Below are positions 34,508 through 39,735 of a stretch of DNA of 64,000 nucleotides, in pieces. Source of the DNA: a virus (taxonomy: Duplodnaviria; Caudoviricetes); the IMG/VR virus record IMGVR_UViG_3300024269_004845. The stretch is one strand, 5' to 3'. The translations under genes and the position numbers were made by a program. The notes under the pieces were generated by a model. That model did not search any database and was not told the DNA's origin. It worked only from the letters and a program-made list of their open reading frames with translations. The number at the start of each line of letters is the position of its first letter. The stretch's first letter is position 1.

Positions 34508-34536
34508 TTGACTTTTTGGAATTTATATGCTATAAT
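34508..34536 (+). promoter_or_regulatory. SigmaA promoter of the tRNA array
   Basis: TTGACT-17 nt-TATAAT with extended TG. Confidence 0.85.
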
Positions 34537-34651
34537 GATATCGTAGAACGAAAAAAAGACAGTGTAAAACACTTTTTAATAATATTTTAAATCGTTATCG
34601 AATACATATATTTATATAAATCAAAAATTTACAAAAAGGAGGCGAACCATA

Positions 34652-34741
34652 ATGTTGAAGTTCGTAGTTATCAATACAACTGAAAATACTGAAGGTAATG
34701 GAGATGCACGTATGGTGTCGCCATCTATTTGTCATGCATAA
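34652..34741 (+). CDS. Leader peptide MLKFVVINTTENTEGNGDARMVSPSICHA (attenuator peptide)
   Basis: Translated by hand; RBS AAGGAGG; overlaps the antiterminator helix. Confidence 0.8.
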   Translation: MLKFVVINTTENTEGNGDARMVSPSICHA

Positions 34742-34768
34742 ATTCAAATTATAAAATTTGATTATTAT

Positions 34769-34809
34769 GAGGACATTTGGCGACACGCTGAATGTCCTCT
34801 TTTTATTTT
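34769..34809 (+). terminator. Intrinsic terminator just upstream of the first tRNA
   Basis: GAGGACATTTGGCG-ACA-CGCTGAATGTCCTC (14 bp including 2 GU) followed by TTTTTATTTT. Confidence 0.9.
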
Positions 34810-34815
34810 GTTTAT

Positions 34816-34892
34816 GGCCTGTTCGACGAATTGGTTAAGTCGCCACCCTCTCAAGGTGGAGGTTATGGGTTCGAGTCCCATACAGGTCACCA
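34816..34892 (+). tRNA. tRNA-Glu(CTC)
   Basis: Cloverleaf folded by hand, CCACC-CT CTC AA-GGTGG, CCA encoded. Confidence 0.95.
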
Positions 34893-34895
34893 TAT

Positions 34896-34971
34896 GCTGC
34901 TATAACTCAGTCGGTAGAGTACTTGCATGGTAAGCAAGAAGTCCCCAGTTCAAGCCTGGGTAGTAGCTCCA
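34896..34971 (+). tRNA. tRNA-Thr(GGT)
   Basis: CTTGC-AT GGT AA-GCAAG, CCA encoded. Confidence 0.93.
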
Positions 34972-34981
34972 TTTTATATTT

Positions 34982-35057
34982 GGCTCTGAAGAGAAACAGC
35001 AGACTCGCCACTCTGTCACAGTGGAGATAGCGGGGGCAGCACCCGTCTGAGCCGCCA
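34982..35057 (+). tRNA. tRNA-Asp(GTC), atypical D and T loops
   Basis: CCACT-CT GTC AC-AGTGG; T-loop GGCAGCA; G73-CCA. Confidence 0.75.
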
Positions 35058-35083
35058 AGAAATTTTATATTTCTTCTTTACAT

Positions 35084-35161
35084 GGCCCATTAGTCGAATT
35101 GGTTAAGACGTCGCCCTTTCAAGGCGAAGGTTGCTGGGTTCAAATCCCGCATGGGTCACCA
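35084..35161 (+). tRNA. tRNA-Glu(TTC)
   Basis: TCGCC-CT TTC AA-GGCGA; 1-nt bulge in T stem; CCA. Confidence 0.92.
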
Positions 35162-35167
35162 CTATAT

Positions 35168-35338
35168 AGTGAAGATAGACGAAGCATCGAGTCGGGGGTC
35201 AGCATACGGCCTTGACAACGTAAGAAATAAGTCTGAGGATAACTCGAGTAAAGTAAGAAACTATTTCTTGAAGTGAAAGATAAATCATTTTATTTAGTAG
35301 CGAGTTATAAGAAGGTTTAAGTCCTTCCTTCACAACCA
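35168..35338 (+). ncRNA. tRNA-like RNA (CAT anticodon) with ~100-nt structured variable region
   Basis: GTGAAG/CTTCAC acceptor plus ACCA, GAC/GTC D stem, GGGTC-AGCATAC-GGCCT arm, GAAGG-TTTAAGT-CCTTC T arm. Confidence 0.7.
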
Positions 35339-35344
35339 CTATAT

Positions 35345-35420
35345 TCCTCTATAGCTCAGTTGGTAGAGCGCGTGGCTGTTAACCACGATGTCGCAGGTTC
35401 GAGCCCTGCTGGAGGAGCCA
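35345..35420 (+). tRNA. tRNA-Asn(GTT)
   Basis: CGTGG-CT GTT AA-CCACG; CCA. Confidence 0.96.
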
Positions 35421-35540
35421 TCGAAGACATGTTGTATGTCAAACTAAACAACTTCAAGTTATCGCAGAGTTCTTATAGAAGAATGGGCCCAAATAATAAA
35501 TTAGTAGTGGCAAGCGAAAGTTTATGGGTTGAAGCGGATT
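35421..35540 (+). ncRNA. Candidate small structured RNA
   Basis: GACATG/TATGTC, CTTCAA/TTGAAG, TTCTT/AAGAA and AAGC-GAAA-GTTT helices. Confidence 0.4.
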
Positions 35541-35556
35541 AAAGAAGTTTTTAAAT

Positions 35557-35699
35557 GGTCCCATCGACAAGTGGTCTAAGTCGTCGCCCTTTCGTTGGAT
35601 TAGTTTAAGTAAAACATTACTGCGGTAAAGATTTGAGTGCAAGTCTCATGTTCAGCACCAAAGGCGGAGTCACGGGTTCGAATCCCGTTGGGACTACCA
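35557..35699 (+). tRNA. tRNA-Glu(TTC) interrupted at 36/37 by a 67-nt tRNA-like insert
   Basis: Halves 35557-35593 and 35661-35699 join into a complete cloverleaf. Confidence 0.85.
35594..35660 (+). ncRNA. Nested mini-tRNA with truncated anticodon arm and CCA end
   Basis: GTTGGAT/GTTCAGC acceptor, GTTT/AAAC D stem, TTAC-TGCG-GTAA, TGAG-TGCAAGT-CTCA, ACCA. Confidence 0.75.
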
Positions 35700-35709
35700 T
35701 TTTAAACAT

Positions 35710-35786
35710 GCTCCCATCCTCTAACGGGCCTAGGAGTCATCCCTTTCAAGGATGCAATGCGAGTTCGAGCCTCGCTGGGAGTACCA
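35710..35786 (+). tRNA. tRNA-Glu(TTC)
   Basis: CATCC-CT TTC AA-GGATG; CCA. Confidence 0.93.
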
Positions 35787-35792
35787 CTATAT

Positions 35793-37872: not shown

Positions 37873-37895
37873 TTAATTGCTCGAACAAAAAAAAG

Positions 37896-37924
37896 TAGAC
37901 TTTTATTAATATTTATGTTATAAT
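37896..37924 (+). promoter_or_regulatory. Internal sigmaA promoter for the distal half of the RNA array
   Basis: TAGACT-17 nt-TATAAT with extended TG. Confidence 0.7.
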
Positions 37925-37990
37925 ATATAATAGTTTGGTTGATTGTGGCGTATTAGCACAAAACAATACGTAATTCCAAACTTTCTATAT

Positions 37991-38067
37991 GGCTCGGTAG
38001 TTCAGATGGTTAGAACGCCGCCCTGTCACGGCGGAGGTCGAGGGTTCGAGTCCCTTCCGAGTCGCCA
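37991..38067 (+). tRNA. tRNA-Asp(GTC)
   Basis: CCGCC-CT GTC AC-GGCGG; CCA. Confidence 0.97.
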
Positions 38068-38068
38068 T

Positions 38069-38856
38069 GGAGAACTCTGCCTACCACTCCTAATGGGGGA
38101 TAGCCTTATTATCATTCATTTTAGAATGTGCGGGTGAAACAAGTGAGATAGTCTGTAGGTTGATGCGGTCAGAGATTTACAGATGATAGCTGGAGACCAA
38201 TGGGCTTTGAAGAAATTGGTCGGACACGGATATGTCGTAACTTTTAGGGTTGCAAGGAATGACATATTTGTGCTTGCGCTGCCTATGCGCAAAACCCTTT
38301 TAAAACGTGGGGTCGTTGCCCACGTCGGACGTATAATTCCGATGTAGTGAAAGGCGAGCAAACAGAGGAACTCATTTGGTGTTGTTCGATTAGGATAATC
38401 GCCAAAACCGAAGACTTCTGGAAACTCTTTGCGTGGTATTGAGCATCCACGATATCATGGAAACGTGATATAAAGATGAGAACGTACAGCTCCGTGTAAG
38501 AACGTTAATCTAATTTGTGCGGGTTTAAGCCTTGATGCCCTCTAAATTATACTTTAAAGCAAGCACGAATCCTTTTGTAGTTCTAATGGATTATAAAAGG
38601 CGAACAACAGTAGTGAATCATCCACTCATTTGAATAGATGGTGCTGGCACGAGGGTAAAGACAGCATAACAATCCTCTGAATATAATCATCTCATCCTGC
38701 GGTGACGTAGAGGTGGGCTCTGGAGTGGTGATAGTGAATCTTTCATCTGTGAAGCTATCAGTAAGTTTAGATGAATATTGCTGCTAGAAAGCAGACGGCA
38801 GTGGGTAGCCCCCACAATAACCCTGGTCGTTAAAGGTGATTTAAGCTGATGGGTTT
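38069..38856 (+). ncRNA. Giant structured ncRNA (~790 nt), GOLLD-like candidate
   Basis: Fills the gap between two tRNAs; many hairpins (CACGGATATGTC/GACATATTTGTG, ACGTGGG/CCCACGT, TTGCGC/GCGCAA, ATATCATG-GAAA-CGTGATAT); no credible ORF. Family not verified. Confidence 0.6.
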
Positions 38857-38862
38857 TTATAT

Positions 38863-38938
38863 TCCTCGTTAGCTCAGTTGGTAGAGCATGCGGCTGTTAA
38901 CCGCAGGGTCGTAGGTTCGAGCCCTACACGAGGAGCCA
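38863..38938 (+). tRNA. tRNA-Asn(GTT)
   Basis: TGCGG-CT GTT AA-CCGCA; CCA. Confidence 0.97.
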
Positions 38939-38944
38939 GTTCAT

Positions 38945-39051
38945 ACTCTGGTGGCTATGCTTACATTTGAGCGGTTTTGAGTAGCTGCTTAACTGCAATT
39001 ATTGTAAGAAGCACAGTCGGCTGCAGACGAAGTACCTACGGGTCCCAGGGT
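38945..39051 (+). ncRNA. Candidate multibranch small RNA
   Basis: Closing stem ACTCTGG/CCAGGGT enclosing four hairpins. Confidence 0.5.
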
Positions 39052-39057
39052 TTTTAT

Positions 39058-39134
39058 GCGGGTATGGTGTTTAATGGCTAGCACTCCTGCCTTCCAAGCA
39101 GGCGGTACGGGTTCGAGTCCCGTTACTCGCTCCA
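39058..39134 (+). tRNA. tRNA-Gly(TCC)
   Basis: CCTGC-CT TCC AA-GCAGG; CCA. Confidence 0.95.
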
Positions 39135-39151
39135 TTTTAAATTTTATATAT

Positions 39152-39229
39152 CGCAGAGTAGAGCAGTTTGGTCAGCTCGCCAGGTTCATGGCCTGGAGGT
39201 CGTTGGTTCGAATCCAACCTTTGCAACCA
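39152..39229 (+). tRNA. tRNA-Met(CAT), initiator-like (C1:A72)
   Basis: CCAGG-TT CAT GG-CCTGG; CCA. Confidence 0.88.
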
Positions 39230-39301
39230 CGCGGGGTAGAGCAGTGGCAGCTCATTGGCCTCATAAGCCAAAGGTCGGAGGTTCAATTCCTTCCCCCGCA
39301 A
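39230..39301 (+). tRNA. tRNA-Met(CAT), initiator-like, no encoded CCA
   Basis: CGCGGGG/CCCCGCA acceptor, TTGGC-CT CAT AA-GCCAA. Confidence 0.9.
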
Positions 39302-39355
39302 GAGACACAATTAACCACCTCCACGCGGTGTGTCTTGGATAGCGCAAACGGTTAA
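39302..39355 (+). ncRNA. Theta (minimal HDV-like) self-cleaving ribozyme
   Basis: P1 GAGACAC/GTGTCTT (G1-U wobble), P2 TTAACC/GGTTAA, P3 ACC/GGT, L3 TCCACGC, P1.1 CC/GG, J4/2 with C-A-A; begins right after the tRNA discriminator. Confidence 0.85.
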
Positions 39356-39383
39356 AGTTATTTTAATTACTAGGAGGAAAAAC

Positions 39384-39608
39384 ATGAGACCTCAATTTAC
39401 AAATGCTTTCGCTATTAGTAAAAACAGTAATAGCACTGAAGTAATTATTACTTTTAAACAGCAATATGTCGATGGAGAGGACGCTAATCATCAGCCTATT
39501 CAGAAAATTGATGATGTGGCTAGTGTTGTAATGTCTCTCGAAGCGGCATTGAGTTTAAAGGACGTACTAAATAAAGTAATAGGTATCGATTATCCTCCTG
39601 CTAATTAA
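39384..39608 (+). CDS. Small protein, DUF3467-like
   Basis: FTNAF...EVIITF...VASVVMSLEAALSLKDVL; RBS AGGAGG. Confidence 0.65.
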   Translation: MRPQFTNAFAISKNSNSTEVIITFKQQYVDGEDANHQPIQKIDDVASVVMSLEAALSLKDVLNKVIGIDYPPAN

Positions 39609-39610
39609 AT

Positions 39611-39686
39611 GCAGGTGTAACTCAATTGGCAGAGTGCCACCTTGCCAAGGTGGATGTTGCGGGTTCGAGCCCCGTCACCTGCTCCA
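39611..39686 (+). tRNA. tRNA-Gly(GCC)
   Basis: CCACC-TT GCC AA-GGTGG; CCA. Confidence 0.96.
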
Positions 39687-39696
39687 AGAAAATATT

Positions 39697-39735
39697 AAAG
39701 ACTTAGTAGATAATTCTACTAAGTCTTTTCTTTTT
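39697..39735 (+). terminator. Terminator ending the RNA array
   Basis: AAAGACTTAGTAGA-TAAT-TCTACTAAGTCTTT plus T-tract. Confidence 0.9.

Follow-up and report, generated by a model that had tools for sequence, protein, structure and literature searches.

A candidate leader-peptide attenuator ahead of tRNA genes that decode its own regulatory codons

In the 64,000-nt stretch of DNA filed as virus record IMGVR_UViG_3300024269_004845 (Duplodnaviria; Caudoviricetes; this whole stretch is referred to as the window), a plasmid-borne array of tRNA genes is preceded by a promoter, a short open reading frame (ORF) and an intrinsic terminator, leader and array together occupying positions 34508-39735. 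The regulatory element of ~300 nt, of which four natural variants are in hand, is probably a ribosome-mediated leader-peptide attenuator in which the decoding speed at a run of regulatory codons acts by feedback on how the cognate tRNA genes are transcribed. An initial annotation, made from the letters of the window alone, had proposed an attenuator geometry of the trp/his/thr/ilv type. As far as sequence comparison can speak to it, this interpretation is supported by (i) the retention of the ORF, its Shine-Dalgarno (SD) sequence and its stop codon, (ii) a codon run bound to one set of amino acids, (iii) covariation in the terminator, and (iv) three helices that compete for the same RNA segments.

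The promoter at 34508-34536 represents the top promoter match within 33000-41500, agrees with the consensus at 11 of 12 positions plus the TG extension, and lies where the initial annotation had placed it. Directly 3' of it lies the short ORF with its ribosome-binding site, an arrangement kept in the four variants, and between this ORF and the first regulated gene lies the intrinsic terminator. Both the 29-codon ORF (34652-34741) and its binding site (SD at 34636-42) are as the initial annotation had read them. Codons 8-18 of the ORF form the longest run restricted to Asn, Thr, Glu, Gly and Asp (N/T/E/G/D) across the six frames of the 64-kb window, where ~0.002 runs of that length are expected from a frame-wide N/T/E/G/D frequency of 0.197. 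With the share of these residues in the proteins of the element (33.5 %), 11 consecutive ones have p ~6e-6 per position by our own arithmetic. The set itself follows from the array and owes nothing to the leader: the anticodons are, in order, ctc, ggt, ttc, gtt, ttc, gtt, tgt, cgt, gtc, gtt, tcc, cat, cat and gcc, so that the 14 identified tRNA genes serve only Glu, Thr, Asn, Asp, Gly and Met, as had been claimed. The proposed match between codons and anticodons likewise holds for all 11 codons of the run, each having a cognate or G:U-wobble anticodon in the array, and across the variants 11-12 consecutive codons face an array for E/T/N/D/G/M. The run starts 21 nt past the start codon, and 9-12 nt separate its end from the antiterminator core in all variants.

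Relatives of the locus were obtained from the neighbourhoods of the closest homologues of the VirD4-like protein encoded downstream, a member of a large family that occurs on megaplasmids of Firmicutes. In terms of VirD4 protein identity to the window, L022 is closest (93 %), followed by L023 and L024 (both 82 %) and L028 (73 %). The gene order SLH gene, leader, tRNA array and VirD4 is common to L022, L023/L024 and L028, and their flanking genes show 76-89 % DNA identity (76-78 % for L023 or L028 versus the window). The arrays of the relatives vary in gene order, copy number and inserted ORFs or non-coding stretches, while serving the same six amino-acid identities. An apparent lack of tRNA-Asp in L028 was dismissed, since Infernal and intron-tolerant ARAGORN revealed an Asp-like tRNA with a 100-nt insertion in the anticodon loop, its acceptor stem and discriminator being unchanged.

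The leader ORF is 82-97 % identical across the relatives, above the level of the flanks (82-86 % for L023 or L028 versus the window), and the stretch from the stop codon to the first tRNA gene shows 70-73 % identity (window versus L023 or L028). All four variants share an identical 7-nt SD, an ATG 8-9 nt further on, 28-29 open codons and the same stop codon; the annotation had made its reading dependent on conservation of the ORF, and ORF, SD and stop are indeed kept in three independent variants. The two insertions or deletions within the ORF comprise whole codons, whereas those just past the stop codon measure 7 and 2 nt. Three zones can be distinguished within the ORF. Codons 2-6 drift, with 11 non-synonymous versus 1 synonymous pairwise differences. 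Codons 7-19 show 0.16 differences per site, made up of synonymous changes (three Thr codons at one position) and replacements, and all replacements within the run stay in N/T/E/G/D (N to T or G, T to N, G to D); positions at the edges of the run even enter the set in relatives (I to N, A to T), yielding 12 consecutive set codons in altered order. Codons 22-30, finally, have undergone zero changes in 27 nt, and 34715-34744 is invariant in all four variants. The 90 % cluster of the 29-aa peptide contains only the variants I7V, A19T and M21V. A drifting N-terminus, a set-bound run and an invariant 3' end are together the pattern of a leader peptide and not that of an ordinary small protein, and the invariance of the C-terminus without synonymous change points to constraints on the RNA rather than on the peptide. 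The attenuator model predicts just this from the leader sequence: the protein sequence would be unimportant, the identities of the run codons would matter, and the 3' end of the ORF would double as a structural RNA segment.

Leader folding, which the initial annotation had suggested as a check, gives competing, mutually exclusive P1, antiterminator and terminator helices of similar energy in all four variants (Table 1). The full leader of the window folds with z = -3.9 to -4.3 versus shuffled sequences. In the minimum free energy (MFE) structure of the full leader, P1 (34631-57/34707-32) encloses the codon run in its loop and is followed by a small hairpin and the terminator; this three-part fold is the MFE structure in every variant, such that segment 2 is sequestered in silico by an upstream 1:2 helix throughout. 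The P1 duplex of the window has -23 kcal/mol versus a shuffled mean of -11.3. The antiterminator, formed in the window by 34716-34741/34762-34785 (-22.6 kcal/mol) and capped by the small hairpin, joins the 3' end of the ORF to the terminator 5' arm and is exclusive with the terminator in silico in the four variants; it becomes the MFE structure in every variant once the RNA is cut short of the terminator 3' arm, with either the SD region or the run masked as if by ribosomes. Both the P1 duplex and the duplex of segments 2 and 3 beat shuffled partners (p <= 0.025 each). The two pairings on which the annotation had built, i.e., the perfect 9-nt complement 34715-23/34778-86 and the alternative pairing of 34641-51 with 34711-22, are present. 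In the terminator, compensatory double changes affect 5 of 13 pairs, and the share of paired cells is 96 % versus 33-52 % in slid controls. The antiterminator core (7-9 bp) does not vary, nor does the sequence with which it pairs at the tip of the terminator arm (9 nt); in the lower terminator stem, changes occur and are compensated. The register of P1 differs among variants, L028 having lost the 6-bp extension of the window and gained A-U pairs from its changed spacer.

The terminator ends 14-16 nt before the first tRNA gene in all variants. In the window, where its 14-bp stem and U-tract proved to be as annotated, the distance from the stem to the first tRNA gene (34816) is 16 nt, which leaves no room for the separate promoter that the annotation had named as potential counter-evidence. 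This arrangement also bears on an alternative explanation, namely a stand-alone small gene or small RNA, with the array fed by constitutive leak through the terminator and no conditional control. The unit from promoter to terminator is indeed self-complete, the 29-aa ORF is called by gene callers, the C-terminus of the peptide is conserved, and trans-acting functions of terminated attenuator RNAs and of leader peptides exist in other bacteria (PMC7298713). Such a unit would, however, sit uneasily with a strong terminator placed 14-16 nt before the first tRNA gene in all variants, L023 having no other strong array promoter, with the conservation of an antiterminator as stable as the terminator, and with the free drift of the N-terminal third of the peptide; moreover, the match between codons and array would be a coincidence of the order of 1e-5. 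A stand-alone unit is hence considered unlikely.

The invariant segments could alternatively belong to a translation-independent RNA switch, in which a protein, a small ligand or an uncharged tRNA binds the invariant block or the top of the terminator 5' arm. Amid variable flanks, a block of 30 nt and a further 9 nt in the terminator arm show no variation, and 34778-84 (7 nt) is complementary to the 3' end of the tRNA-Asp of the array, recalling the logic of T-boxes; 4 of these nucleotides are complementary to the G73-CCA ends of the Asn and Asp tRNAs. This 7-nt match is not significant on its own (rough estimate p ~0.2), however, and a folded tRNA has just 4 free 3'-end nucleotides for pairing. 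Neither a T-box nor any other Rfam family was detected at E <= 1 in the window or at E <= 0.1 in L028, and the conserved perfect SD, start codon, open frame and codon-sized insertions or deletions would not be needed by a switch that is not translated. Altogether, an RNA switch of this kind appears unlikely.

Segment 2 (34715-34723) itself matches the 3' end of tRNA-Asp (38059-38067) at 8 of 9 positions, G73-CCA included; this likeness may be due to chance (rough estimate p ~0.2) or hint at a T-box-like contact. A T-box proper was dropped as a candidate, because no Stem I, specifier or T-box motif was found with Rfam in 34300-40100 at E <= 1 or in L028 at E <= 0.1. A match to ctRNA_pT181 at 34734-34812 was rejected as well (32.7 bits, below the cut-off of 56).

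For the leader-peptide attenuator, the following course of events is proposed. Transcription would begin at the strong promoter, and a ribosome would load on the perfect SD; the model presumes that the leader ORF is translated and that ribosome and polymerase are coupled at the leader. Without a loaded ribosome, segment 1 would pair with segment 2, the terminator would form, and transcription would stop 16 nt before the first tRNA gene, giving transcripts that presumably end at ~34805. During smooth translation to the stop codon, the ribosome would cover segment 2 and the terminator would form again. Slow decoding of the 11-12 Asn/Thr/Glu/Gly/Asp codons, in turn, would stall the ribosome inside the P1 loop and leave segment 2 free to pair with the terminator 5' arm as soon as this is made, allowing RNA polymerase to read into the tRNA genes for those amino acids. 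A ribosome with its A site anywhere in the run would leave the antiterminator strand free, whereas a ribosome at codons 20-30 would cover it. The predicted outcome is a negative feedback by which decoding capacity would govern the supply of tRNAs; a response of read-through to this supply, and its direction, are likewise predictions of the model. Slightly favoured over its alternatives is the wider notion of a self-tuning circuit, in which the speed of ribosomes on the 12-codon track reports the host pool of five tRNA families and the element's own copies are transcribed only when that pool is insufficient. One may speculate that starvation or anticodon nucleases act as triggers.

The same architecture would serve an attenuator that senses general translation stress, e.g., ribosome-targeting antibiotics as in case of erm, vmlR and bmrCD, with the invariant C-terminus as arrest determinant and the codon run as an incidental feature. 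The last eight residues of the peptide are invariant, drug-sensing leader peptides are the common form of ribosome-mediated attenuator in Firmicutes (PMC4191407), and a plasmid-borne tRNA operon of Anabaena is induced by translational stress (PMC10272220). General stress sensing would nevertheless explain neither the restriction of the run to the amino acids of the array nor the set-bound replacements; a ribosome stalled at codons 22-29 would occlude segment 2 and promote termination instead of read-through, and the C-terminal invariance exists at the DNA level, with no synonymous change. We therefore regard this possibility as rather improbable.

Several points weigh against the attenuator as outlined for the cognate codons. 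All variants belong to one lineage with one tRNA amino-acid set. The proposed pairings explain the invariance of 34715-34744 only partly, and the antiterminator partners differ between variants. To our knowledge, tight coupling of transcription and translation is not the rule in Firmicutes. A ribosome at the stop codon covers only the lower antiterminator (~34724-34750) and not the 9-bp core. The complete terminator is favoured at equilibrium for nearly every ribosome position, so the switch must be kinetic, as in trp and other classical attenuators. A ribosome stalled in the run has segment 1 behind it, which means that P1 must be blocked sterically or by a second ribosome initiating on the SD. 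Finally, the site at 37896 in the window could feed the Asp, Gly and Met genes separately. The initial annotation had already raised an internal promoter as a caveat; the site (37896-37924) is present, but the caveat is weakened in that L023 has no equivalent of >=10/12. In this compact relative, eight Glu, Asn, Thr and Asp genes are contiguous, and the leader promoter is the only + strand promoter of >=10/12 between the terminator of the upstream gene and the terminator closing the array. With its sole strong promoter at the leader, L023 suggests that the ancestral unit was a single operon behind the attenuator, or so it appears.

If the attenuator operates as proposed, it would be the first case of tRNA genes under leader-peptide attenuation, and a multi-input attenuator for five amino acids. 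It would constitute a direct feedback loop from tRNA demand to tRNA synthesis, explain how large plasmids and phages carry tRNA arrays without constant cost, and provide a compact, portable sensor that reports whether the tRNAs for five codon families suffice.

Table 1 Features of the leader region and the tRNA array (positions refer to the window)
Feature	Position	Strand	Remarks
Promoter: -35, 17-nt spacer, TG-extended -10	34508..34536	+	11/12 consensus; same promoter ahead of leader in L022, L023 and L028
AT-rich 5' untranslated leader, ~95 nt	34543..34635	+	start deduced from -10; no Rfam match
Segment 1: SD, spacer, start codon; 5' strand of P1 (anti-antiterminator)	34631..34657	+	MFE partner 34707-34732
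Shine-Dalgarno sequence, perfect 7-mer	34636..34642	+	9 nt ahead of ATG; same 7-mer in 4/4 variants, spacer differs
Leader ORF, 29 codons + stop	34652..34741	+	29 aa; called as gene on ~18 contigs
Putative regulatory codon run, codons 8-18, Asn/Thr/Glu/Gly/Asp only	34673..34705	+	11 codons
Segment 2: ORF codons 19-30	34707..34741	+	predicted to pair with segment 1 or terminator 5' arm
Small hairpin capping antiterminator	34744..34761	+	predicted there in each variant, sequence differs
Segment 3: antiterminator 3' strand	34762..34786	+	overlaps entire terminator 5' arm and loop
Intrinsic terminator + U tract	34769..34815	+	stem 34769-34799, 14 pairs, 7 G-C, -20 kcal/mol
tRNA array, 14 genes, among ORFs and non-coding stretches	34816..39686	+	Glu x3, Thr x4, Asn x3, Asp, Gly x2, Met x2
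Internal promoter-like site before tRNA-Asp (window lineage)	37896..37924	+	10/12 + TG
Terminator closing array	39697..39728	+	14-pair hairpin; equivalent right after last tRNA-Gly in L023 and L028
P1 energy across variants			-18 to -23 kcal/mol
Antiterminator energy across variants			-21.6 to -24.3 kcal/mol
Terminator energy across variants			-16.1 to -20.4 kcal/mol

The element carrying the window has a size of at least 297 kb and a low GC content (~33 %). It encodes gyrase A and B, DnaE, DnaK, two VirD4-like coupling proteins, a secretion ATPase and SLH-domain proteins. Metagenome assemblies from JGI, ENA and Logan contain the element, while it is absent from the phage, plasmid and viral-contig collections searched. 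BLAST of the leader and of 33000-42500 against phage and plasmid collections returned matches to tRNA genes only. Exact-pattern scans for the pair of segments 2 and 3, the run, and the invariant C-terminus plus stop yielded chance inverted repeats or nothing in viral contigs, two chance matches only in genome contigs, and no match in metagenome contigs, the latter being a weak negative as that collection evidently lacks the source samples. A search for related loci via the SLH protein retrieved one 1.7-kb contig, ending before the leader. VirD4 relatives of <=69 % identity have no array upstream or reside on contigs too short to tell. The tRNA arrays inspected on megaplasmids of Paenibacillus and Jeotgalibacillus show no such leader, a promoter being located directly ahead of the tRNA genes.

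Sequence conservation is low in the 5' untranslated leader, with 45-67 % identity for L023 and L028. In L028 this leader extends over ~215 nt (1661-1872) versus 85-95 nt elsewhere and contains a second promoter-like site at 1793-1821 (10/12 + TG). A promoter-like site inside the leader of the window (34729-57) was discarded, as it has no conserved counterpart in L023 or L028 and is in any case located ahead of the terminator. Within the leader ORF, the conserved Gly-Asp codons give rise to an SD-like GGAG (34699-34714 region) that precedes the in-frame ATG of codon 21 by 9 nt; the distance to the ATG of L028 is 5 nt, and GTG takes the place of this ATG in one cluster variant. Translation might also start internally, yielding a peptide of 9-10 residues. 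Upstream, between the SLH gene and the leader, resides a gene for a 414-aa, Asn/Asp/Glu-rich, lipoprotein-like product (33242-34486) that is absent from L022, L023 and L028. No close relatives of it were found, its single distant relative being situated in an unrelated context, and together with the absence from the three relatives this makes it look like a lineage-specific insertion.

Within the array, several tRNA genes carry insertions of 67-100 nt in or beside the anticodon loop (window, 35557-35699; L028, 3322-3498, 4052-4195 and 4625-4769). The tRNAs concerned are missed by standard ARAGORN and detected by Infernal and intron-tolerant ARAGORN; one L028 tRNA called His(gtg) reads Asp(GUC) once the boundary of the insertion is shifted by one base. 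The second tRNA-Met (39230-39362 region), ending at 39301, is the sole tRNA of the array without an encoded CCA, and it is directly followed by a weak match to the model of the F. prausnitzii HDV-like ribozyme (23.2 bits, E 0.45). This would fit a theta-type ribozyme trimming the 3' end of the tRNA. Two long ORF-free stretches of higher GC content inside the array (36980-37455 and 38069-38856) have no Rfam match, and a gap of similar size is found 3' of tRNA-Asp in L023 (8576-9406) and L028. Just 3' of VirD4, a 1981-aa protein of no known family is encoded (42529-48474), which consists to 40 % of Asn/Thr/Glu/Asp/Gly versus 33.5 % element-wide and is possibly a major consumer of the array tRNAs.

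Full-text literature searches retrieved no paper joining tRNA arrays with leader peptides or attenuators, in line with the initial annotation, to whose author no described multi-amino-acid attenuator for a tRNA array was known. We probably deal with a leader-peptide attenuator whose regulated genes are the tRNAs decoding its own regulatory codons, a type of control of which these searches yielded no description for tRNA genes. Control of bacterial tRNA genes is thought to be exerted mainly at the promoter, via growth rate or the stringent response. The element resembles trpL, hisL, thrL and ilvL of E. coli in (i) a short ORF with clustered regulatory codons after the promoter, (ii) the overlapping helices 1:2, 2:3 (antiterminator) and 3:4 (terminator), and (iii) the position of the run just 5' of segment 2. 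Runs of codons for multiple amino acids also occur in thrL and ilvL. In contrast to these four leaders, tRNA genes instead of enzymes would be regulated and five amino acids sampled; segment 1 coincides with the SD and start region, such that P1 would also shut off translation; and the setting is a low-GC, Firmicute-type mobile element without sequence or Rfam relation to them. Accordingly, the Rfam models for amino-acid operon leaders (Thr, His, Leu and Trp) gave no match, neither at the gathering score nor at E <= 1.

The pheST attenuator of E. coli (pheM leader) regulates an aminoacyl-tRNA synthetase for one amino acid. It shares with the present element that a leader-peptide attenuator controls a translation component serving the amino acid of its regulatory codons, but differs in that here the tRNA genes themselves would be regulated. 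By analogy, the element would be mechanistically akin to multi-amino-acid attenuators of the thrL and ilvL type and to the pheST leader. T-boxes bind tRNA directly and need no translation, and they are not known ahead of tRNA genes. Like the proposed attenuator, T-box riboswitches of Firmicutes couple the state of specific tRNAs to read-through of a leader terminator via competition of antiterminator and terminator; unlike them, the leader described here has a conserved ORF and no detectable Stem I, specifier or T-box motif.

The principle of leader-peptide attenuation is known from amino-acid biosynthetic operons (PMC1183508), and in Firmicutes ribosome-mediated attenuation is established for bmrCD (PMC4191407) and tlrB/yxjB (PMC6851288). 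In these Gram-positive cases, too, translation of a leader peptide decides on terminator formation, but antibiotics are sensed, resistance genes are controlled, and a codon run matched to the product is lacking. The present element falls outside the antibiotic-sensing attenuators of the erm/ARE-ABCF/bmrCD type in that its downstream genes are tRNAs and not resistance determinants. Functionally, the closest precedent is the trn operon of the Anabaena delta megaplasmid, an operon that is silent by default, induced by translational stress and governed by the repressor TrcR (PMC10272220). Common to both would be a tRNA array borne on a large plasmid, off by default and turned on when translation is in trouble; in Anabaena, a ribbon-helix-helix repressor acts at the promoter, with no leader peptide or attenuator mentioned (PMC10272220), whereas in the element described here the decision would be taken by the ribosome on the leader.

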